DNA from: Candidatus Eiseniibacteriota bacterium
GTDB lineage: Bacteria; Eisenbacteria; RBG-16-71-46
Length of the DNA: 12,282 nucleotides
Direction: 5' to 3'
Assembly: GCA_031366795.1 (NCBI GenBank)
Contig: JANLOX010000088.1
Span: forward strand, 1 to 12,282
Shown piece after piece: positions 816 through 12,282 of this stretch. A program made the position numbers and the translations under genes. The notes under the pieces are model-generated. The model was not told the DNA's origin and did no database searches. It saw nothing but the letters and a program-made list of their open reading frames with translations. Numbering within the stretch: position 1 is the first letter of the stretch; every line of letters starts with the position of its first letter.

Positions 816-2660
816 CTAGGCCGCCCTGGCCATACCACCCGTGTCGAACGCCAGCGCGGCGGCCGCCGCATCGGCGTCCGTCACCGTCGGCAACTCGATC
901 TCGAAGGTGGTTCCCTGCCCGGGCTCGCTGATCACGCGGATCACGCCCTTGTGTTCATGCACGATGCCGTAGGAGACCGACAGCCCGAGGCCCGTTCCCT
1001 GGCCCGAGGGCTTGGTGGTGAAGAACGGCTCGAAGATGCGCTGTTGGATGTGCTTCGGAATGCCCGGGCCGTTGTCGCGCACGCGGATCTCGACGCGGCC
1101 GCCGATCCACGGGCTCACCTCGACCAGCACTTCGCCGGGGCTGCCGTTCATCGCCTGCTGCGCGTTAAGCATCAGGTTCATCAGCACCTGCTGCAGCTGG
1201 TTCGCGTTGCCCTGGATCCTCGGCAGCGACGTCGGCACTATCTGTACGAGCGTCACTTCGGCGAGCGCCAACTGGTGACGCATGATCGCCACGGCGTCGT
1301 TGACCACGGTGCCGATGTCGACGGGTCCCAGGCCGACCTTCTCCTGCCGCGCGAAGCGCAACAGGTTGTCAATGATCGCGCGACACCGACGTGTCTCCTT
1401 CTCCACGGTCTCGAGATTTTCGTTGAGCATGGGGACGTCGTACCGGGTGCGGCGCATCAGTTGCACGAGCCCGAGAATTCCCGCGAGCGGGTTCTTGACC
1501 TCATGCGCGACGCCGGCGCCGAGCTGGCCGAACGCGGCCATCTTCTCGGACTGGACGAGCTGGCCCTCGGCATCCTTCAGCGCTTGTTCACGCGCGTTGA
1601 GCTGCCGGCCCATCTGCGTGAACGACTCCGCCAGCGTGCCGATCTCGTCGCGCGAGTTCACCTTCACCTCGACGTCGAAGCGGCCCTTGGCGATTTCGCG
1701 CGTCGCCTCGACCAGCTTGGCGAGCGAACGGGTGAGCGACTGCGACCACAACATGCTTACCACCGCTGCAAACGCGAGCAGCAGCAGCGCCACCCACAGC
1801 AGGCTGCTCAGCAGCTGCCGCGAGGCGAAGTACGCGGTCGCACTCGGCACCTCGGCGGCGGCGATCAGGTTCGTGCCCTCCACCGGCGCGTAGCCCGCAA
1901 TCTTGTCGCCTTTCGGGTCCGAGATCTCGCGAACGAGTGCGGCGCTGTTGCGGCCCAGCGTCGGGATGCCCGCCAGGCGCTCGCGATGCAGCACCCTCGA
2001 GGCTTCCCTGTGGCTCAGCAGCATGTGGCGGTTGTCGGCAATGTAAACATTGAACGAACGCGAACGCGTCGCGATGTTCATCAGGTCATCGAGACGCAGC
2101 ACCGCGGACATCACCAGCGGCACCGAGCCCTCGCGTTTGTGCGACACGGCGATCGCCAGCGTGGGGAGCCGGCTGCCGACGGTCGAGTTCTCGACGTAGG
2201 TCTGGCCCTCGATGATGGCCGCGAAGGGCAGCGGATGCTCTGCCCGGTAGTGCTGGAGGTCCGACGGCGTGATGCCACCCTCGTGCAACGAGGCCTCGTC
2301 ATACACGGACGCCAGCGGCGTCCCGCGCGCATAGGCCGTCAGCGACACGAAGCCGTGGAACCCTTCGAGGACGTCCTGGACCAGCGCGGTGCGCTGCTCC
2401 GCGGACAGTTTGGGATCCTCGAGCAGACGCGCGCAGACATCGAGCCGGTCGCGGTACGACGCGATGACCGCCTCGGTTTCCTGCGCGGCATGCGTCGCCT
2501 GCACCGCGCTCAAGTCGCGCACGTAGATGCTCTTGTCGGCGTGGAACATCTGCGCCATCGTGAAGGTGATGGTGCTGACGACCGCCGTGACCACCAGCAG
2601 CACGGCCAACAGGATTTTATAGCGGATCGGAATTCCAGCTGCTCGTGGCATCTCGAACAT
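816..2660 (-). CDS. Sensor histidine kinase (2 TM, periplasmic Cache-like sensor, HAMP, HisKA, HATPase_c; NtrB-like class)
   Basis: TM1 ILLAVLLVVTAVVSTITFTMA; TM2 LLWVALLLLAFAAVVSMLW; HAMP ...EIAKGRFDVEVKVNSRDEIGTLAESF; H-box AGVAHEVKNPL; N-box QLQQVLMNLMLNAQQAM; G1 DNGPGIP; F-box IFEPFFTTK; G2 GTGLGLS. An alternative start at 2651 has better spacing from the G-rich SD at 2661-2670. Confidence 0.95.
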   Translation of the reverse strand: MFEMPRAAGIPIRYKILLAVLLVVTAVVSTITFTMAQMFHADKSIYVRDLSAVQATHAAQETEAVIASYRDRLDVCARLLEDPKLSAEQRTALVQDVLEGFHGFVSLTAYARGTPLASVYDEASLHEGGITPSDLQHYRAEHPLPFAAIIEGQTYVENSTVGSRLPTLAIAVSHKREGSVPLVMSAVLRLDDLMNIATRSRSFNVYIADNRHMLLSHREASRVLHRERLAGIPTLGRNSAALVREISDPKGDKIAGYAPVEGTNLIAAAEVPSATAYFASRQLLSSLLWVALLLLAFAAVVSMLWSQSLTRSLAKLVEATREIAKGRFDVEVKVNSRDEIGTLAESFTQMGRQLNAREQALKDAEGQLVQSEKMAAFGQLGAGVAHEVKNPLAGILGLVQLMRRTRYDVPMLNENLETVEKETRRCRAIIDNLLRFARQEKVGLGPVDIGTVVNDAVAIMRHQLALAEVTLVQIVPTSLPRIQGNANQLQQVLMNLMLNAQQAMNGSPGEVLVEVSPWIGGRVEIRVRDNGPGIPKHIQQRIFEPFFTTKPSGQGTGLGLSVSYGIVHEHKGVIRVISEPGQGTTFEIELPTVTDADAAAAALAFDTGGMARAA

Positions 2661-2668
2661 CCCCCCTC

Positions 2669-4051
2669 TCAGAACTTCGCTTCGATGACCTTCGACTTGT
2701 AGGCCGAGTTGCCGACACGATCGATTGCTTCGACCACGACCACATTGAATCCACGCTTCAACTTGACGGTGCGCTCGAACTTGCCGGAGCCATCGATGAC
2801 GGCCTTCTCACCAGCAACGATGATGCGGATGCCGGGGTCCGTGGTTCCGCGCACGATGCATTCACTGCCGTTGACGACGCTCGCCGGGAAATCCACCTTG
2901 AGGCCCGGCTGCCGCTGGACGCTCGAAACCACGACCGTGCGCGGCTGCGACGGGGCGCCTTCGGCGCCTGCGTGCAGCGCGCTGACACGCCAGTAGTAGG
3001 GGCCGCTCTTGAAGTTGCCGTAGACGAAGTCCGTCGCGGCCAGGCGCTGGTCGATCACCACGCCCTGGAACTCCGGGCTGCGCGAGACGCGCAAGCGATA
3101 ACCGTCGGCGCCCGGCACCGTATTCCAGCGGAAGGTGACCTGCGGCGACAATTCGCGATAACTGAACGTGGCCCCGCCCGCCGGTGCCAATAGAATGGGC
3201 GCATCGGGCAGTGTGGCAGGTGCTGTGGCGCCGCGCAGCGAATCCACGGTGATGAACTGGTTGGCGCCGATATGCACGGTGCGGCCCAGCGAGACCACGT
3301 CGGCGCTCCCGTGATAAACGGACACGATGGAACGCTTGTTCCTGCCCACCGCGACCCTGAACTGCGCCGGGGCGCCGCTGGAGGACGACACGCTGGTCTC
3401 GGCGCCGGGCGAAGTGACTTGCACCGCGCCATGGTCCTCGCCCTCGCTCGCCACATTGCCCCACAGTTCGCCCATTTCGACATGCACTGAAGTGGGGGGA
3501 TTCAGCGTCTCCACCTCGGAATGGCTGGCGCGCACGATCATCAGCGAGTTCTGCTCGAGTTGCAGGTGTTTGCCCTTGCTGAAGGTCAACATCGCCGTGC
3601 CGTCGCGGGTCGTCTGAACGGCATCGCCTTCATGCAGCGGCGTCCCCGAAGGCACGGCGCCCCACACGATGCCGTCGGCATCCTTGCGCATCACCTGCGT
3701 GTTGAGCACCGTCAGCATGGCGGCGGCGGGATTGAGTTTATCGCCTAGATTGCCGAGGTCTTGCAGCGACGCCGTGAAATTGTGCCGTCCCCCGTCGCCC
3801 TGCGAGCCGGGCTGCATCAATTCGTGCATGGTCAGCCCGGAGGGAATCAGCGCCGACATGGCGAGCATGAACACCGCGAAGAAGGCCAGCGCCACCAGCA
3901 CCGAGATGATGACCTCGGTGCCGGCCGTGACCATTCGCCGCACGCGGCCGATCACGGACGCCGCGGGAGTGCCGTTGGGCGCGGATGCAGGAGGTCGCTT
4001 CGCTTCGGCTGCGGTGCCCTGCTCTGCCCCGCGTGGATCGCGGTCGGTCAT
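2669..4051 (-). CDS. Single-pass membrane FecR-domain protein with FN3-like and C-terminal Ig-like domains
   Basis: Short N-tail and a TM helix (VIISVLVALAFFAVFMLAMSALI). FecR-like signature LHEGDAVQT...AMLTF...LQLEQNS...VEMGELW...QFRV...VSVYHGSADV. FN3-like segment APILLAP...VTFRWNTVPGADGYRLRVS...YYWRVSA. Ig-like segment VRGTTDPG...GFNVVVVEAIDRVGN. GGAGG SD lies inside the last codons of the upstream gene. Confidence 0.85.
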   Translation of the reverse strand: MTDRDPRGAEQGTAAEAKRPPASAPNGTPAASVIGRVRRMVTAGTEVIISVLVALAFFAVFMLAMSALIPSGLTMHELMQPGSQGDGGRHNFTASLQDLGNLGDKLNPAAAMLTVLNTQVMRKDADGIVWGAVPSGTPLHEGDAVQTTRDGTAMLTFSKGKHLQLEQNSLMIVRASHSEVETLNPPTSVHVEMGELWGNVASEGEDHGAVQVTSPGAETSVSSSSGAPAQFRVAVGRNKRSIVSVYHGSADVVSLGRTVHIGANQFITVDSLRGATAPATLPDAPILLAPAGGATFSYRELSPQVTFRWNTVPGADGYRLRVSRSPEFQGVVIDQRLAATDFVYGNFKSGPYYWRVSALHAGAEGAPSQPRTVVVSSVQRQPGLKVDFPASVVNGSECIVRGTTDPGIRIIVAGEKAVIDGSGKFERTVKLKRGFNVVVVEAIDRVGNSAYKSKVIEAKF

Positions 4052-4052
4052 C

Positions 4053-7000
4053 TCAATACCTCCCCTGCGCGCGAACGAACCATCCGCGCACGGAGTAGTC
4101 GTTCCTCGAGAACTCGCTATCCGAGAAATCCGTGAAGTTGTAGCCGCCCCCGACGCGCATGTTGCGCGTGAGGTCGTAGGTCAGTTCGTTGAGCCAGCCC
4201 TGCCGCCGGTCATGCGCCTCGCGCTGGCCAAGCACGCGGTACTCGACGCCAAACCGCAACGGCCCGCGCACGGCCGTGCTGACGCGGCTCAGCATCAGGG
4301 AGGTGCGCGTGCGCGCTTCGGGGCTGCCTTGGGAGCGTTCGCGCATCGCGCGCAAGGCGCCCTTGCCGCTCCACTGCACCATGGCGTTCAGGTCGACGGT
4401 CGCCTCGGCGGCGAACACGTCCATCAGGGTGCCGGCGTGGGAACTGTCGGCGCCCACGCTGGGGCCCATTTCGTCCAGCCGAGTGTAACGCGCGACACCG
4501 TTGATGCGGTCGCTGGTCAGCGGCCGGTAGGCGAGCCCGAGCGCGTGCTCCTGGAAGCGCGCCTCGTCGCGGCCCGACACGAGATCGCGCGTGCGGCTGT
4601 AGCGGAAGTCGCCGAGCACCACGAGGTTGTCAGTGAGCCGCGACTCGGCGTGATCGGTCCACAGCACCTGGCGCCGCTCGAGCGCGCCGTGATCGCGACG
4701 CCACTCGGCCCGCGAGGAGACATGCAGGTCTTCTTGCGGTGACCATGCGAAACCACCGGCCAGCGCGCTGCGGCGCGTGGCGCCCGCGACCGCCTGGGTC
4801 TGCCCGTACTCCCCGCTGGCAAACAACGTGGTACCGGCGCCGCGCTGCCACTGCTGTTGCAACCCGATGAGCGAAATCCTGCGCGATCCCGCCGCGGCCT
4901 GCTCCCACTGGTACTCGCTGTAGGCGCGGCTACCGCGGCCGAACGGCGTCTGGGCACCGAGCACGGTCGCGGCAGTGTGGGCATGCGTGTCGTCGGTGAG
5001 CCGCTGGTTCACGTACACGCTTCTGCCCCCACCGGTGGCAAAGGTTGCGCCGCCCTGCAACGAATTCCCGAGCGAGCCCGTCACGCCCCGCGCGTCGAGG
5101 GCGAGGTGCTGCGTCAGTTGGTATTGCAGGCTCGCACGACCCTGGTCGTTGCGTGGCCCTCCGAACGTCGACTGCTGCTCGAGCCGCGCGCTCAGCCTGG
5201 CCGAGGGCTTGAACCACACGCTGCCCGTGCCATAGCTCGAGCGATCCGTCATGCGGCGCACTGCGTCCTCGAAGCTGCGCGCCTGGAACTCCGTGCCGAA
5301 GCCCCAGCGCCCGGCATCGTGCGCGAATGACAACGCGGCGAGGTTCGAGACGCGCCCGTTCGCCACGGTGTCGGCGGGTGAGCGGAACTGCTCATCGCGA
5401 TCGAAATGCGCGCCCAGCTTGTCGTGCTTGGTGAGGCCGACGTTCGCGCTGACGCCAGCCTTCTGGGTGCCGCGGTCCTGCGTGCTGCCGTTGGAGAAGA
5501 AGTCGTGCTCGACGCGCTTCACGTAGGCCTTGAGCATGGCGCGATCGGGCGCGCCGAACCACTCGCCCACGTCGAGATCGGCCGCGGCCTTCCACGCCTT
5601 GCCTTCCTTGAGACCATTGGGCGTCTGCTCCTGGAAGCTCACGCCACCATCGAGGCTCGAGTAGACGCGCGACGATGCGCCATTGCTGCTGGCGAGTTCG
5701 CCTGAGATGCGCGAGTTGCGCCCGGCGCGCAGTTCGGCGTCGGCACCGTGCAATTCGTAGCCCCCCACGCCCACGTCGTCCTTCAAGTAGGTGCCGCCGA
5801 GTGCCATGTGATCGCCGAGATGCTGCTGCACGTGACCGCCTGTTGCGGAGCGGTCGAGCCCCTGAATGCTCGTCTCGTAATCGATCTCGATGGTCACGGG
5901 GCTGCCGGGCAGCAGGGTGGTGCTGACGAGGCTGCCGTCATCGAGCACGCTGGCGACGGGCCGCGAGAACAGGATACGGCCTTCGCGGTACTTGACGGTG
6001 TAGTCCATGTTGCGGCGCTGCGGCATGCGCGCGATGACCAGACCGGTCGTGGCGTCGCGCACCGCGAGTGACACCTGCTCGCTGCCCTCGACCAGATCAG
6101 GGTGACTCAAGTAGTAGACGGAGCCGCCTGTCCCACGCAGCTCGTCGCGCACATGCACCTGCGAGGCCTCGGCGCCGAGCAGCGCAATCGTGGTGCGCGG
6201 CTGGCCATAGCGCGTGCGCGAGACCGAGTGGTACTGGACGCGCGCGCCATACAGCGTGCGCTGGAATCCCGACAGCTCGGTGTCGTTGAGCGACATGGCG
6301 TAGTTGCCGACCAGGGCCTGGAACTCATCGCTCTCGACCGCGAGGAAGAACCGGCCCTGCGCCTGCGCATCATAGACCATGCTGCTCGAGTCGCCGTAGA
6401 CCGGATAGAGCCGGTCGGGATCGAGATTGGTGAGCAGGCGGTCGTTGGTGTTGTCGTCGACATCAACCAGGATCTTCTCGAACCCGCTGGTGCGCGTGTC
6501 GAACGCCGAGGTCACGAGATACTTGCCGGCCACGTAACCCTTCAAGTAGTAGGCGAGCCGGCCATCGGCGTAAAAGCCGGTGTTCGCGAGCCGCCCCGCG
6601 CCATCGACGAAGCCCTTGCCGCGCAGCTGCCCGAGGGTTCCGTCAGCCAACCCTAAGAAGAACAGCTTCTGCGGCACGCGCACGACATCGCGCTCGAGGG
6701 TGGAGATCTGGCCGGTCTGGTCGATGGCCTGGATCAGCATATGACTGGAGCCGCGCGGCAGTGGCGCCGAGTAATGGAAGCTGCCATCGACGCGCACCGG
6801 CACGTCCTGGCCATTGACGCGCACATGGTTGCCGGGATTGGTGACGCCGGAGATCGGGTAGGTGTCGCTCATCAGCGGCGCGTCCACCGGCGGCAGCGCC
6901 ACGGTCAGGTCCGGCTGGCGATCCACGGCGATCAAAAGCTTACCGCCGGCATCTTCATTCGCGACGGTCAGCAGCAAGTTGACGAGACGCGTGGCTCCCG

Positions 7001-9965
7001 CGGCATTGCGCACCATCACGCCGTAGGTGTTGTAGCCGAGTTGCAGGTCGAGCGTGGCGTGGAACAACCCGGTCGTGTCGGCGAAGAACTCGCGCTGGTC
7101 CAACTGCACGAGGTTGCCGGGCGCGGTGCGTCCGACCAGCTGGCACGTGCCGACCGGCTCGCTACCCGCTTCGTCAGCGCCACTGCTCAACCGCAACGCG
7201 CCGGCCGTAACGCCCGGAGCCAGCGGCGCCACGCGATAGGGCCCCTCATTTGCGCCGAATGCCACGCGCTGCGTTCCCAACGGCTGCAGGATTTCCACAT
7301 CGGGCAGCGGCACGGCCGAGTGAATGACGCGTCCCGCGGCATCACGCACGAGGATGTCGATCCGCTCGACGCTCGCCGGAACCTGCGTGGCGAAGCGGCC
7401 GCCGGCATCGATCGACAGCGTGTCACCATTGATCTTCACCAGCGGTTGGCGGCGCTGGCGGTCCGTGATCTGCGCTTCCTGGCGATCGACCATCTTGCCG
7501 TGGATCTCGACGCGACGGTTTTTCTCACGCCCCGCTTCCGTCGCATTCGTCGCCACCGGGCGCGCCTCGCCGTACCAGCGCAGCACGAGCCGGTCCTTCG
7601 GGATCTGCTGCTCGTCGGTGAGGAAGGCCGCAGCCGACTTGGCTCGCGCTCCGGACAACGCGAGGTTCAACTCCGCCGGACCCACCGAGTCGGTGTAGCC
7701 CTCGATGAACACGGTCTCGCCCGGATGGCGACGGATCAGGTCGGCCACCTTCGTGAGCGCCTCACGCGCATCCGCGCTGAGCACCGCGTTGCCGCTCTGG
7801 AATGCCTTGCCGGTCATGGTGAGCGCGATCGTCGTCGAGCGGTCGACGCCGAACGTGCGCACCGGACTCGAGGCGCGAATGCCGTCGCGGTAAAGCAGCG
7901 ACAACTGGTACTGGTGGAGCTCCCCGCCGCTCAGGCGCGTGCCGTCGTTCTTGACGCCATCCCACGTGACGGCGCGCGGCGGCGGTCCTTCGCCTTCAAA
8001 GGTGCGTTCGATGTCTCCCTGTGCGCCCATGATCGTGAAGGTCCAGGAGCGGATGAACTTGGGATCGTTGGCCGAGATCTCGAAGCGCAAGGGGCCTGCC
8101 AACTGGCGGTCCTTGATCTGCACCGATTCCGAGAGGCCCGCGATCGACAGCCTTACATCGCCGTCCGGCAGCGTCAGCAGGTCACCATTGAGCAGCAGCT
8201 TCGGGCCTTCGACCGTGCCGACGAGCATGGCCGGCTCGGGCGTGGCTTGGCCGGCGATCTCGAGCCCGGGCATTGCAGGCCTGCCCGAGCGCAGGGTGTC
8301 GCGAACCATTTCGATCCCGAAGTTGGCCTTGGCCAGCAGACCCGGGCTCACGGTGACAAGGCGTGTCTGCTCGGTCGTGGCATGCGCCACCCCCGGGATG
8401 CTCGCCACATCGATCTTGACCACGCGGTCGCCCGGGCGAATGCCCGCGATGTGGTAGAGCCCGTGGTCGTCGGTGAGCGCGTAGGTGCCATCATCGAGTG
8501 CCACCTTCGCCCGCGCGACACCGCCTTCGTCGCGGCCCTGGCGGCCGTCGCGATCATGATCGTCGAATACGCGGCCCACGATCGTGCCGAGGCCAAACAT
8601 TTCATCCACGCGCACGCGCACTCCGGCTTCGCCCGCATTGGAGAGCAGACAGGCATCGCACACGTCACGCGCAATGGCGACGTTGCGGTAATACCCAGGC
8701 GTCGCCCCCGAGCCGACGACGAGCTGGTAGCGCAGCGTGACATAGCCGGGCTCACCCGGATCGGCCTGGCCGTTGGCGTTGGCATCCACGAATGCCGGCA
8801 CGGTGCCGAGCACGAAGGTCAGGGGTCCTGACCCCAGCGGGTCGGCCGCGTGGACGCCGTCCACGGAGGCGGAGCCTCGCAGGTACTTGAAGTCGGCGGG
8901 CGGCTGGTCCTCAACGCGAACGTTCGACACCGGCCACGCGATCGTGTTGCGCAGCACGACGGTGTAGTTCACGACATCGCCAATGACCACCTCGGCGCGA
9001 TCGGCGAGCTTCTGCAGCAGCAGCACTTCGCGCTGCGTGAACGCCACGGTGGGGTGCATGCCGACGGTCAGCGCGTCGCTGGTATCGCGCGCGGAGATCG
9101 TCGAGATGCCCGCGAGGTTCGAGCGGATCGTGCCCGTCACCCTGCCGGCGCTGTCGGTGAACGCCACCGGCTGCGCCAGCACGTCGGCCGCGCCGCGGTC
9201 GGTGGTGAACACCACGCCGCGGCCGGGCAGCGGAATGCCGGTGCCATCGCGCACCGTGGCGGTGATGGTGCTGAAGGCTACGCCATCCGAGAAGACGACC
9301 GGCGGATTGACAGTCACGGTCGATTGCGTCGTGTCCGGCAGCGCGTAGACGCGCACGGTCATGCTGTTGGCATCCGTCGCATCGCCATCGGCATCACCGA
9401 TGGTGGAGGCGCGCGTGCCGCCGATGCTGACGGTTGACGAGCTGAAGTCCGCAATGCCATCGATGCCGGGAACGCTCGCCGACACATTGATCTGGAGGTG
9501 TGCGGTCGTATCCGCGAGCGGCTGGCCGAAGCGCACCGTCACGGTGGATCCCGCAACCGTGGCACAGTACTGGCCGGAACCGGGGTTGGGGCAGCGGGCG
9601 CTGAGCGCCACACCGGAGACCGTGACGGACAGCACGGCGAAATTCGCGTAGCCCGCAGGTGCCGTCAGCGCCACCTGGTCGAGCGATGGATCGGACGGCA
9701 GCACCGTCGCGAGCAGATCCCACGTGAACACGTTGCCCGCGCTGCCTGCGATCACGCGCGTCGGCGCGATCTCGGCGGTCGATGCCACACCGGGCACGAC
9801 CTGTCGGGTGAGTGTCACCATGGCTTGTGACGAATCGAGCGGCACACCACCGGAGACACCGGTTGCGGCGTTCGATACGCTTTGTGCGCGCACCGGCTGC
9901 GCGGACGCAAACAGCAGCGCCAGCAGCAACGGAATCTTCCAACGCATCAGCTTGAGGGAGCGCAT
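4053..9965 (-). CDS. Giant secreted outer-membrane protein: Ig/Big_1, DUF11, SdrD-B-like, FlgD-Ig, OmpA-like, Ig repeats, large C-terminal beta-barrel
   Basis: Sec signal peptide ending VRA|Q. Big_1/invasin-like domain ~9039-9340 (STITATVRDGTGIPLPG...TDSAGRVT). Complete DUF11 ~8605-9030 (LQK...VNYTVVLRN...EDQPP...YRNVA). SdrD-B-like ~8310-8590 (IVGRVFDDHDRDG...EGG). FlgD-Ig ~7850-8095 (VTWDG). OmpA_C-like ~7498-7825 (IEGYTDSVG...NLALSGARA...GEARP...NRRVEI). Alternating amphipathic strands from ~6670 to the C-terminal GWFVRAQGRY (aromatic beta-signal). Confidence 0.9.
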   Translation of the reverse strand: MRSLKLMRWKIPLLLALLFASAQPVRAQSVSNAATGVSGGVPLDSSQAMVTLTRQVVPGVASTAEIAPTRVIAGSAGNVFTWDLLATVLPSDPSLDQVALTAPAGYANFAVLSVTVSGVALSARCPNPGSGQYCATVAGSTVTVRFGQPLADTTAHLQINVSASVPGIDGIADFSSSTVSIGGTRASTIGDADGDATDANSMTVRVYALPDTTQSTVTVNPPVVFSDGVAFSTITATVRDGTGIPLPGRGVVFTTDRGAADVLAQPVAFTDSAGRVTGTIRSNLAGISTISARDTSDALTVGMHPTVAFTQREVLLLQKLADRAEVVIGDVVNYTVVLRNTIAWPVSNVRVEDQPPADFKYLRGSASVDGVHAADPLGSGPLTFVLGTVPAFVDANANGQADPGEPGYVTLRYQLVVGSGATPGYYRNVAIARDVCDACLLSNAGEAGVRVRVDEMFGLGTIVGRVFDDHDRDGRQGRDEGGVARAKVALDDGTYALTDDHGLYHIAGIRPGDRVVKIDVASIPGVAHATTEQTRLVTVSPGLLAKANFGIEMVRDTLRSGRPAMPGLEIAGQATPEPAMLVGTVEGPKLLLNGDLLTLPDGDVRLSIAGLSESVQIKDRQLAGPLRFEISANDPKFIRSWTFTIMGAQGDIERTFEGEGPPPRAVTWDGVKNDGTRLSGGELHQYQLSLLYRDGIRASSPVRTFGVDRSTTIALTMTGKAFQSGNAVLSADAREALTKVADLIRRHPGETVFIEGYTDSVGPAELNLALSGARAKSAAAFLTDEQQIPKDRLVLRWYGEARPVATNATEAGREKNRRVEIHGKMVDRQEAQITDRQRRQPLVKINGDTLSIDAGGRFATQVPASVERIDILVRDAAGRVIHSAVPLPDVEILQPLGTQRVAFGANEGPYRVAPLAPGVTAGALRLSSGADEAGSEPVGTCQLVGRTAPGNLVQLDQREFFADTTGLFHATLDLQLGYNTYGVMVRNAAGATRLVNLLLTVANEDAGGKLLIAVDRQPDLTVALPPVDAPLMSDTYPISGVTNPGNHVRVNGQDVPVRVDGSFHYSAPLPRGSSHMLIQAIDQTGQISTLERDVVRVPQKLFFLGLADGTLGQLRGKGFVDGAGRLANTGFYADGRLAYYLKGYVAGKYLVTSAFDTRTSGFEKILVDVDDNTNDRLLTNLDPDRLYPVYGDSSSMVYDAQAQGRFFLAVESDEFQALVGNYAMSLNDTELSGFQRTLYGARVQYHSVSRTRYGQPRTTIALLGAEASQVHVRDELRGTGGSVYYLSHPDLVEGSEQVSLAVRDATTGLVIARMPQRRNMDYTVKYREGRILFSRPVASVLDDGSLVSTTLLPGSPVTIEIDYETSIQGLDRSATGGHVQQHLGDHMALGGTYLKDDVGVGGYELHGADAELRAGRNSRISGELASSNGASSRVYSSLDGGVSFQEQTPNGLKEGKAWKAAADLDVGEWFGAPDRAMLKAYVKRVEHDFFSNGSTQDRGTQKAGVSANVGLTKHDKLGAHFDRDEQFRSPADTVANGRVSNLAALSFAHDAGRWGFGTEFQARSFEDAVRRMTDRSSYGTGSVWFKPSARLSARLEQQSTFGGPRNDQGRASLQYQLTQHLALDARGVTGSLGNSLQGGATFATGGGRSVYVNQRLTDDTHAHTAATVLGAQTPFGRGSRAYSEYQWEQAAAGSRRISLIGLQQQWQRGAGTTLFASGEYGQTQAVAGATRRSALAGGFAWSPQEDLHVSSRAEWRRDHGALERRQVLWTDHAESRLTDNLVVLGDFRYSRTRDLVSGRDEARFQEHALGLAYRPLTSDRINGVARYTRLDEMGPSVGADSSHAGTLMDVFAAEATVDLNAMVQWSGKGALRAMRERSQGSPEARTRTSLMLSRVSTAVRGPLRFGVEYRVLGQREAHDRRQGWLNELTYDLTRNMRVGGGYNFTDFSDSEFSRNDYSVRGWFVRAQGRY

Positions 9966-9966
9966 G

Positions 9967-10584
9967 TCAGTTGACCCTCACGCGGAAGCGAATCGCGATG
10001 CGCGTCATGGGCGGAATGAGCCCTGGCTGGTTGGCCTGGCCTGTGACGCCGCCCACAGTGAGCCGGTCTCTGCCTAAGGAGCCTCCGGAGTCGACGATTG
10101 AAGCAATATCGTCGGGAGCTCCCGTGTCATCGGTGAGAGGTGTCCACGTGGCGTTCCATACCGCTGCGTCGCTCGAACCGCTGGCCACCGTGGTGACGGC
10201 GAGCGAATTCGGGACGTACGTGAACTGCGACTCGTTCAACGGGTCCGTCAGTTGCAGATCGTCGATCGGGTACGGTGTGGCGTTATCGACGTACAACACG
10301 AAGTACAGGTCCTGACCTGCGGCAACGCTACCGCCACCGGGCAACACCACTCCCCTCAGATCACGCGCCTGTTTCACCAGGGCAAGATCCGTCACGTTAA
10401 ACGTGACCAAGGCCGGGCCTGTGCCGTCGCCGCCCAGGAGGGTGCCGTTGTCGGTTCCGCCAATACCGCCCTTCACCGCATTCGTCGCAGCGTGGGCCGG
10501 CACTGATCCGGTCAACAAAGCCCATCCCAAGAGCACGAATAGCCAGTACTTCAGCCGTGCCAGGGGTGTGTTAGTGCAGGTCAC
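9967..10584 (-). CDS. Secreted DUF11/isopeptide-type fimbrial-like subunit (putative minor pilin)
   Basis: GTG start; signal peptide ending AHA|A; DUF11 pattern LALVK...FVLYVDN...LTDPLN...FTYVPNS; ends AIRFRVRVN. Clear paralogue of 10673-11254. The start codon is less certain because there is no obvious SD. Confidence 0.85.
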   Translation of the reverse strand: MTCTNTPLARLKYWLFVLLGWALLTGSVPAHAATNAVKGGIGGTDNGTLLGGDGTGPALVTFNVTDLALVKQARDLRGVVLPGGGSVAAGQDLYFVLYVDNATPYPIDDLQLTDPLNESQFTYVPNSLAVTTVASGSSDAAVWNATWTPLTDDTGAPDDIASIVDSGGSLGRDRLTVGGVTGQANQPGLIPPMTRIAIRFRVRVN

Positions 10585-10672: not shown

Positions 10673-11254
10673 TTACTGAACCTTCACGGTGAACAGCACA
10701 GCCCACACCTTGCTCGCCGGAACCGTGACCAGACCGTTACCCGCAGACGCACCCGCGCTGATGGTCGTGCCCGTGATACCCGCCACGTCCGCACCGCTCA
10801 CCGCATCGCTCAGCACCGCTGCCGCATTCGCTGCCGCAAAGATCGCCGCGACCGTCGAACCGGTGTTCACGGTGTTGCTGACACGGATCGTTCCCGGCTG
10901 GTAGACGAACGCCGCGTTCAGCGCATCGACCACGTTGACCGAGTCGACCGGGACGGCCGTCGTGTTGTCCATGTAGATGAGGAACTTGACCGGCGTGCCC
11001 TTGGCGACCGTCGTGTTGTTCGCGATCGGCGTGCCGTCGGTGAGGAATGCCGCCTTCACGAGCGACAGCTGCGTCGAGTTGATGGTGAAGATGTTCGAGG
11101 TCCCGAGGTTGGTGGCGTTACCGGCGATATCACCGCTCGCCTGGTTGTCCGCCGCGAACGATTCGTGCGGCGCAAACATCACGGACGCGACGAGAACGAG
11201 ACTGGTTGCCGCGATAAACTTCGCGACGCGAAGGGACCACGTGTGCAACTTCAT
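10673..11254 (-). CDS. Secreted DUF11/isopeptide-type fimbrial-like subunit (putative major pilin), 193 aa
   Basis: True start is most likely the ATG at 11254 (MKLHTW...), preceded by GGAGGAG. Signal peptide ends SFA|A. DUF11 pattern LSLVK...KFLIYMDN...VVDALN...FVYQPGT; ends AVLFTVKVQ. Ala/Thr/Val/Asn/Gly-rich and beta-rich composition. Confidence 0.9.
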   Translation of the reverse strand: MKLHTWSLRVAKFIAATSLVLVASVMFAPHESFAADNQASGDIAGNATNLGTSNIFTINSTQLSLVKAAFLTDGTPIANNTTVAKGTPVKFLIYMDNTTAVPVDSVNVVDALNAAFVYQPGTIRVSNTVNTGSTVAAIFAAANAAAVLSDAVSGADVAGITGTTISAGASAGNGLVTVPASKVWAVLFTVKVQ

Positions 11255-11622: not shown

Positions 11623-11630
11623 ACTCGGTG

Positions 11631-12282
11631 ATGCGCGTGAGCTCGCTCGTAGTGAGCGCCCTGTGCGGAATGGCGCTCTCGGCCGCCGCGTCGACAGCAA
11701 TGGCGCAGATCGGGCCGCCTGATCCCGCAAGGACCACATTGCAGAGTCAGTACATCGCGGTCGTCGGATCCACCAACGGCACACCCGATGCGTGTGGCGA
11801 TACCCGCTGCGGCAACTTCAACGTCACGGTTCGCGACTACGCCAACAACGTACTGCCTGGCATCACCGTGACCATCGACTTTTCGGCTTGCCCGGATATC
11901 CAAATCGCGTGCGATCAATTGACGGCGACCACGGGGCAGACTTATCTCGGCGGCGGAAAGGTCAGCGGCGTCACGAACTCTCTCGGCCAATTTACGTTCC
12001 GCGTGATCGGCGCATCGAATGCCGTGCCGACCAGTTCGAACACGACCTCTCCAGGTTCATTGATGAACACGCCGTGTGCGCAGGCGTATGAGGGCGGCGA
12101 GGCGCTCTCGCCGGTTTTGATTGTCGCCGCTTACGACGTGAATGGACTCGGCTCCCCCAACGCCGCGGTCAACGGAGCAGGCGCGTCGCTGGTCGGCGCG
12201 GAAGTCGTGAAGGTCGGGCTCGGCGCGACGCCACATCCGCGCGATGACTACAACAACAGCAACAGCGTCACCGGCCCCGATG
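11631..12282 (+). CDS. Secreted Cys-containing Ig-like protein with dockerin/EF-hand-like C-terminal motifs (partial, runs off window)
   Basis: Open frame from the ATG at 11631 to the window end, missing from the ORF track: MRVSSLVVSALCGMALSAAASTAMA|QIGPPDPARTT...FNVTVRDYANNVLPGITVTIDFSACPDIQIACDQ...GVTNSLGQFTFRVIG...AAYDVNGLGSPNAAVNGAGASL...RDDYNNSNSVTGPD. Has an SD and a signal peptide. Confidence 0.88.
   Translation, partial: MRVSSLVVSALCGMALSAAASTAMAQIGPPDPARTTLQSQYIAVVGSTNGTPDACGDTRCGNFNVTVRDYANNVLPGITVTIDFSACPDIQIACDQLTATTGQTYLGGGKVSGVTNSLGQFTFRVIGASNAVPTSSNTTSPGSLMNTPCAQAYEGGEALSPVLIVAAYDVNGLGSPNAAVNGAGASLVGAEVVKVGLGATPHPRDDYNNSNSVTGPD

Follow-up and report, generated by a model that had tools for sequence, protein, structure and literature searches.

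We describe here a conserved donor segment at the mature N terminus of a 1970-amino-acid (aa) protein of a Candidatus Eiseniibacteriota bacterium, and we propose that this protein, which ends in a putative outer membrane barrel, docks through the segment onto pilins encoded directly upstream. The genes lie on contig JANLOX010000088.1 (assembly GCA_031366795.1), the whole of which (12,282 nucleotides [nt]) was analyzed and is referred to here as the window; most of those discussed below are on its minus strand. The assignment of residues 28 to 55 as a conserved donor segment holds on the basis of sequence conservation, and the wider explanation, in which the barrel protein, the pilins, and a separate head would be the docked parts of a split adhesin, is in our view probable as a whole.

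Results

The open reading frame (ORF) at 4053-9965(-) encodes the giant barrel protein. After the leader, its mature N terminus reads QSVSNAATGVSGG...SQAMVTL, with Asn32 at 9872-9870. The initial annotation had described this stretch, at 9807-9884, as an orphan donor strand of the pilin type, and the ORF translation bears out its coordinates, the position of Asn32, and the N-terminal motif. The pattern is indeed present in both upstream genes, as N37-x3-G-x2-A-G...F-T-I followed by LSLVK67 in pilin 1 and as N35-x3-G-x2-G-G...V-T-F followed by LALVK71 in pilin 2. It is also correct that no L-x-L-V-K acceptor directly follows the segment in the giant protein: the next domain, D1 (residues 58 to 208), is without the Lys, and the first L-x-L-x-K (residues 315 to 319) lies inside a complete CLIPPER domain that has its own Asp353 and Asn428.

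Homologues were collected with residues 1095 to 1500 of the barrel as the query, so that their selection was independent of the motif, and the best 120 of 289 matches were examined, the protein's own cluster included. They were scored on a hidden Markov model (HMM) of 19 barrel donors from related loci, some of them identical to proteins among the 120, and on an HMM of 51 pilin donors from which the pilins of the window and of locus L001 had been left out. Sixty-four proteins scored at least 12 bits on the barrel-donor HMM, a value reached by 0 of 2400 shuffled sequences, 11 scored on the pilin-donor HMM, and 45 on neither. By eye, the motif is present but under the threshold in 5 of these 45; 4 begin with a leader and have a different head, and the other 36 start mid-protein. 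A donor is therefore found in 80 of the 84 barrel-selected homologues with a visible N terminus, and the Asn, whose conservation had been proposed as a check, is present in 80 of these 80. The positions best conserved around it in 69 barrel-type donors are Gly+4 (67), Leu+11 (65), Ala+16 (58), Ala+2 (57), and Gly+8 (56). Thus, the Asn and Gly positions of the annotated pattern stand, while the Gly or Ala before the second Gly does not (Asn in 26, Gly in 23, and Ser in 16 of the 69).

The direct likeness of the barrel donor to the pilin donors is modest. Residues 28 to 60 of the giant protein score 7.7 bits on the pilin-donor HMM, as the best site in the protein, and 8 of 2000 shuffled sequences score as high; a profile-profile comparison gave an E value of 0.0018 and a probability of 15%, with Asn aligned with Asn. 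It is the conservation in orthologues that makes the donor identity firm. Furthermore, 11 homologues bear the pilins' own type of donor in place of the barrel donor (13 to 34 bits on the pilin-donor HMM).

The segment is an orphan donor, independent of the domain that follows it. In the 75 HMM-positive proteins the next domain is D1 in 61, a Big_1 domain in 10, and another domain in 4, and at locus L012 the donor precedes a complete CLIPPER domain. An AlphaFold2 model of residues 28 to 472 leaves residues 28 to 57 outside D1 and with no long strand (predicted local distance difference test [pLDDT] values of 56/70/56), and the later domains have values of 83 to 97 up to the cut end. Hence, both findings named beforehand as decisive against a donor, unconserved Asn and Gly residues and an integral strand of the following immunoglobulin (Ig)-like domain, came out negative.

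The pilins themselves appear to be CLIPPER/DUF11-like domains cut before their Asn strand. In the CLIPPER structure 9IFR, the bond joins Lys715 and Asn806 with Asp748 (PMC12617251, drawn on here, like all articles cited below, in its accessible text). A model of the pilin 2 acceptor (residues 34 to 173) had its best CnaA-type match at a Z-score of 9.8 (root mean square deviation [rmsd], 2.6; 119 residues aligned) and matched 9IFR at a Z-score of 6.6 (rmsd, 2.3; 87 residues aligned). It has the CnaA-like sandwich with a first-strand Lys and the predicted catalytic Asp, and it lacks the Asn strand that follows them in the same domain of a CLIPPER protein: the match to 9IFR covers chain positions 22 to 109 of 123 and stops there. 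This Asn strand is present in the giant protein's internal CLIPPER domain. The pilin profile also aligns with tandem CLIPPER repeats (E value, 5e-5), where it bridges the boundary between two repeats and keeps Lys and Asp in register. The Atlas neighbors of the pilin acceptor are DUF11 clusters (0.92), about half of whose members are annotated, and its match to TIGR01451 reaches an E value of only 0.031. In Pfam, pilin 2 had no match and pilin 1 only a spurious one, a Protein Data Bank (PDB) sequence search with the pilin profile returned nothing under an E value of 0.35, and one with the L012 donor and CLIPPER domain did not retrieve 9IFR. No thread, TasA, or chaperone-usher pilin is among the fold matches listed for the pilin model, an absence that is not evidence in itself. 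By residue patterns, which miscalled some rows, Lys and Asp are present in 112 of 120 pilins and in 28 of 32 heads, and the donor Asn is present in 115 of 120 pilins.

A complex model of donor-less pilin 2 with residues 28 to 60 of the giant protein scored 0.75, with the best control at 0.01; 116 of 157 solved complexes reached this mark, as did 2 of 215 mismatched pairs, a rough calibration since the alignments were self-made. At least 94% of contacts were the same between runs, and the partner had a pLDDT of at least 81. In the model, the donor completes the pilin 2 acceptor, in line with the proposal that the segment inserts into a pilin. Residues 29 to 41 and 43 to 55 both touch the acceptor, and for this reason the segment is taken to reach to about 9801; the description of the segment as a donor is thus retained, and that of a single strand ending at 9807 is replaced by two strands. 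The first donor strand runs antiparallel to the strand bearing Asp114, and Lys71 and Asp114 contact Ala34, from which register we infer that Asn32 would adjoin Lys71 and Asp114. We lean toward covalent capture, with Asn32 joined to the pilin Lys. Within the pilin, about 3 residues separate the donor from the acceptor that follows it, and the monomer model gives this donor low confidence (pLDDT values of 56/60/54), so that self-capping looks unlikely.

Barrel donor and pilin genes co-occur. Two barrel patterns were used to scan metagenomes, and the best 80 of 102 loci were kept; of these, 37 have a donor (36 by HMM and L071 by eye) and 36 have no visible N terminus. The first 28 related loci were left out of the counts, as they had been found with pilin 2. 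An acceptor-domain gene lies beside all 31 donor barrels that have at least 600 nt upstream and beside 2 of the 6 with a shorter flank. At the complete donor-less loci of the scan it is present in 0 of 7; there, the gene adjoining the barrel gene encodes a kinase. In the host's own phylum, where 30 of 206 genomes encode the barrel, 20 regions from 34 matches comprised 3 with a donor and pilins, 5 complete and donor-less, and 12 cut or frameshifted; acceptor genes accompany 3 of 3 donor barrels and 0 of 5 complete donor-less ones. Over both data sets, 0 of 12 complete donor-less barrels have an adjacent acceptor gene. In a second phylum (matches in 5 of 401 genomes), 3 of 4 regions combine a donor with a head and one or two pilins; a run of N breaks the fourth. 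No P value is given for the co-occurrence, because related loci are not independent.

The complete donor-less barrels are one-piece adhesins composed of a head, a stalk, an OmpA domain, and the barrel. Many loci encode large acceptor-ended proteins, referred to here as heads; those scanned contain beta-helix, SdrD_B, laminin-G, or CLIPPER domains. Thirty-one were compared, after two mis-started pilin ORFs had been dropped and one protein had been added from L132. None of the 31, several of which are cut at the 5' end, has a donor in its first 140 aa. For 19 of them, one-piece barrel proteins have a matching N-terminal part (E value of ≤1e-10). Of the 9 one-piece N-terminal parts, 6 had matches, the best at 62% over 619 aa. 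Heads reach 2,861 aa, and their genes may be unlinked or on the other strand. In the assembly studied here, the candidate head is on another contig (C39:6105-8063[-]) and has 652 aa, a hydrophobic N-terminal segment, a complete DUF11 domain, a C-terminal acceptor, and no donor; this acceptor is closer to that of pilin 1 (score of 227, 56 of 137 residues identical) than to that of pilin 2 (93, 42 of 137).

Since many heads of one-piece proteins are homologous to separate acceptor-ended tip proteins, the system, as judged from these homologies, appears to be a split fibrillar adhesin made of barrel, pilins, and head. The head is separate and acceptor-ended in one form and fused to the barrel N terminus in the other, and therefore the donor would mark the cut. 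The barrel protein had been proposed as the base anchor, and the one-piece relatives, which carry their adhesive head at the same end, make this likely. The order barrel, pilin 2, pilin 1, head is suggested by the pilin 2 acceptor and the barrel donor, each of which is conserved across both subfamilies; exceptions are L071, with a pilin-type barrel donor and one shaft-type pilin, and L042, with a single pilin. Donor and acceptor classes covary (basal donor class B with F-class shaft acceptors at 35 loci and C with V at 8), to which we give little weight because the classes track the two subfamilies and the patterns miscalled rows L013, L018, L020, L025, L078, L089, and L108.

Two sets of relatives are of note. 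Loci L137, L140, L142, L143, and L149 of the host's own phylum encode one-piece barrel adhesins of 2,400 to 4,500 codons with long repeat stalks. Another contig of the same assembly (C231:495-7990[-]) encodes a distantly related barrel protein that has numerous DUF11 repeats in tandem and its N terminus off the contig, followed by a separate gene that is OmpA-like by eye.

The remainder of the giant protein can be read as follows, all features being on the minus strand. A Sec-type signal peptide (9885-9965), recognized by eye, ends in the A-x-A-type sequence V-R-A27 and has no lipoprotein Cys; a hydrophobic leader also precedes the motif in homologues. The donor hairpin (residues 28 to 55; 9801-9884) contains Asn32 (9870-9872), Ala34, Gly36, Gly40, Leu43, Ala48, and Val50-Thr-Leu52. 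D1 (9342-9794) is predicted to be a complete Ig-like stalk domain and is absent in part of the family. It is followed by a Big_1/invasin-like Ig domain (residues 214 to 294; 9084-9326; PF02369; E value, 6.9e-14) and by the complete CLIPPER/DUF11 domain (Lys319, Asp353, and Asn428; 8616-9023), which scores 44.9 bits on TIGR01451 (cutoff, 24) and 23.8 bits on PF01345, below the cutoff of 24.6, and which may form an intramolecular bond. An SdrD B-like domain assigned by Pfam (residues 464 to 521; 8403-8576), a weak FlgD-like Ig domain, an OmpA-like peptidoglycan-binding domain (residues 722 to 817; 7515-7802; PF00691; E value, 3.4e-19), which we take to be periplasmic, and a further Ig domain lead to the C-terminal 875 aa (4053-6680). 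This last region (residues 1096 to 1970) has no Pfam family at an E value of ≤1 and belongs to an unnamed family; its Atlas neighbors are mostly unnamed clusters (0.92 to 0.98), and because some of these are labeled outer membrane protein and the terminal residue is Tyr, it is regarded as a putative outer membrane barrel. A Foldseek search with the four-domain N-terminal model returned generic tandem-Ig matches only.

Upstream, pilin 1 (10673-11254; Asn37, Lys67, and Asp110) is the likely shaft subunit and pilin 2 (9967-10584; Asn35, Lys71, and Asp114), which ends before the Asn strand, the likely basal adaptor, so that the minus strand reads pilin 1 (11254-10673), pilin 2 (10584-9967), the giant protein (9965-4053), a gene for a FecR-like secreted or membrane protein (2669-4051), and a HAMP histidine kinase gene (816-2660). 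The last two genes (816-4051[-]), conserved neighbors at most related loci and often joined by response regulators, accompany both split and one-piece barrels and could constitute a surface-signaling module. The closest named related locus is from Candidatus Eisenbacteria (93% to pilin 2). The window also holds an ISAzo13-family transposase (3-748[-]; PF07592), in two frames and cut by the contig end, and a divergent gene for a secreted Cys-containing protein (11628-12282[+]), likewise cut and with a faint Big_1 match only (E value, 0.08). A copy of this divergent gene adjoins a second copy of both pilin genes on another contig of the assembly (C452:3551-5708), which is cut by the contig end and shares 85% DNA identity with the window over 2178 bases; this copy may stem from a duplication or from a related strain that was binned with this genome.

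Discussion

In the mechanism that we propose, the segment would be the C-terminal strand pair that a CLIPPER-like domain (DUF11, CnaA fold) is missing. The barrel protein would present it on its own stalk, at the outward end, and it would complete the truncated acceptor of a pilin, most likely pilin 2. Asn32 would then probably form an Asp-catalyzed isopeptide bond with Lys71 of pilin 2, the donor of pilin 2 would bind pilin 1, which may repeat, and a large acceptor-ended, donor-less adhesin would cap the far end. The whole would be a split version of a one-piece adhesin, both forms being encoded by the same barrel family. The bond, the subunit order, polymerization, and export through the barrel are all steps that we infer.

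Several observations weigh against this proposal. Fold Z-scores of 6.6 to 9.8 are near the range of common sandwiches, and the donor profile gave no match to single CLIPPER repeats (E value, 0.47; 9 sequences). The complex test could be passed by the halves of a split domain through their likeness to intact solved domains, and the pair Lys71-Asn32 is absent from the 25 best-defined contact pairs of the model. Four donor-less proteins seeded the query alignment of the metagenome scan, there is kinship and redundancy among the loci, and of the 7 donor-less metagenome loci 6 seem to represent a single lineage. At L068, a donor barrel has no pilin-2-type gene within 10 kb upstream. Ser replaces the donor Asn at two near-identical loci (L024/L025; 10633), and the basal pilin of L022 (9866-10456) is without Lys and Asp, yet the L022 barrel retains its Asn; these lineages may be natural noncovalent variants.

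The initial annotation further deduced that the barrel protein nucleates the fiber and that growth is distal. This deduction does not follow, since chaperone-usher pili, which grow from the base, have the same polarity. It is that of type 1, P, and type V pili, in which a donor-only proximal subunit would terminate assembly (PMC9715654). Nor need a finished fiber expose a free donor, because acceptor-only tip proteins exist, one of them in this genome. It is nevertheless conceivable, with a likelihood somewhat short of even, that the tethered donor is captured first and nucleates, with subunits leaving the cell and joining distally, where a donor is free, until the fiber is capped by an acceptor-only head. 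No chaperone-like family recurs among the 997 remaining ORFs of the loci, whose flanks are limited and in which only response regulators and adhesin fragments recur; the AlphaFold2 model shows nothing that masks the donor, which is tethered next to the barrel; and self-capping of the pilins looks unlikely. However, polarity alone gives no order (PMC9715654), and heads of up to 2,861 aa would need separate export and would then have to find the fiber end.

An order like that of chaperone-usher pili is possible if doubtful: the head would pass the barrel first, pilins would add from the periplasm, and the barrel donor would come last as terminator and anchor, after which the barrel protein's own stalk would go outward. 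This would agree with type 1, P, and type V pili, whose polarity is the same (PMC9715654), with FimI, which is added last and anchors (PMC12122975), and with PamR, modeled as an N-terminally inserting terminator and anchor (PMC13278184). The head of the one-piece relatives is at the N terminus of the same chain, from which it would follow that this barrel family handles head-first cargo. On the other hand, the loci, with their limited flanks, yielded no chaperone gene, there is no evident means of holding back a tethered donor, and the barrel is without an usher-family match. Growth that is unordered or yields short fixed chains is likewise only a tentative option.

Rather unlikely, in our judgment, is a noncovalent or short fixed linker of barrel, adaptor, and exchangeable head, with no long polymer or no bond. 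It would suit L042/L152, a single contig with a barrel, one pilin, and one head only, the loss of the triad in L022 and L024/L025, and head genes that can be unlinked or on the opposite strand. It is at odds with the retention of Lys and Asp in most pilins and heads by pattern and with the head acceptor of this genome being nearer to that of pilin 1 than to that of pilin 2, as expected if the donor of pilin 1 fits both its own kind and the head. Finally, it is very improbable, and largely refuted, that the segment belongs to the following Ig domain as an integral strand or is a sorting or linker peptide with no relation to pilins. Its direct likeness to pilin donors is weak, but it precedes at least four different kinds of domain, AlphaFold2 does not place it in D1, 11 homologues have a pilin-type donor in its stead, and loci without pilin genes lack it as well.

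Returning to docking of a split adhesin, its boldest form would be a chaperone-free and enzyme-free class of covalent pilus, derived from a one-piece barrel adhesin cut inside a CLIPPER domain, in which the export barrel, bearing its own donor hairpin, nucleates an outward polymer that exchangeable giant heads cap; we advance this only tentatively. If true, bacteria with two membranes would have a pilus route without chaperone or sortase, locked by self-forming bonds and rooted in an uncharacterized barrel family. The occurrence of both one-piece and split forms within it would show directly how a fibrillar adhesin can give rise to a pilus and would fix the polarity of its ends. The several donor and acceptor classes would be candidates for natural pairs of covalent tag (a peptide of 28 residues) and catcher (a domain of 140 residues), an addressable code that may be likened to SpyTag/SpyCatcher.

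A literature search that included a 2026 review (PMC13721041, in its accessible text) found no description of such a system, subscription journals and supplements, among them that of PMC12617251, being outside its scope. CLIPPER/DUF11 (PF01345) adhesins share with it the CnaA-like fold, the Lys and Asp register, and the Asn-x-Ala strand, and they likewise include Gram-negative adhesins with an OmpA-like anchor; there Lys, Asp, and Asn are in one chain, whereas here the Asn strand pair is at the N terminus of another protein (PMC12617251). The accessible text of that article does not mention "donor" or "split." A DUF11 grappling-hook filament (10.1101/2025.08.19.671072) was considered and is not the same system, being a one-chain repeat protein for which the accessible text mentions neither donor nor isopeptide. 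The archaeal thread Saci_0406 has donor-strand complementation and an isopeptide, and its donor-only subunit Saci_0405 is a terminator or a nucleator depending on polarity; its bond joins Asn to the N-terminal amine of subunit n+2, and there is no barrel (PMC9715654). The conserved Lys and Asp of the present system point to a side chain bond. In the Pam pili of bacteria of the candidate phyla radiation, PamR is modeled as an anchor inserting its N terminus into the basal pilin; these pili have membrane-bound chaperones and no outer membrane, and an isopeptide goes unmentioned in the accessible text (PMC13278184).

Type V pilins are made as lipoprotein precursors and carry a C-terminal donor strand. 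The leaders in the present system end in A-x-A without a Cys, and the donor is N-terminal.

Chaperone-usher pili, with the FimH tip, FimA rod, FimI terminator, and FimD usher, share proximal-to-distal donation, an acceptor-only tip adhesin, minor adaptors, and an outer membrane barrel (PMC12122975 and PMC13721041). The present system likewise has acceptor-only tip adhesins and, given the homology of heads to one-piece N termini, donors that would point outward. It differs in that no chaperone gene was found within the limited flanks of the loci, in its non-usher barrel (no usher is among the best 60 of 86 PDB sequence matches), in carrying the donor on the barrel chain itself, in a bond that is probably covalent, and in having one-piece relatives. 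In Clostridium perfringens BsaA, an N-terminal donor Asn inserts into and locks to the Lys of the next subunit, and mutations abolish oligomers (PMC11580942). The donor Asn and acceptor Lys are common to both systems, and BsaA differs in its monoderm host, SipW processing, Glu catalyst, and TasA family (PMC11580942); here the conserved acid is Asp, the modeled donor has two strands, the acceptor is CLIPPER-like, and there are a putative barrel anchor and large heads. Pfam gave no TasA/camelysin match on the pilins, and no SipW-like family was noticed among the recurring neighbors. Taken together, the system resembles a chaperone-usher pilus in layout and BsaA in its predicted chemistry and belongs to neither class.

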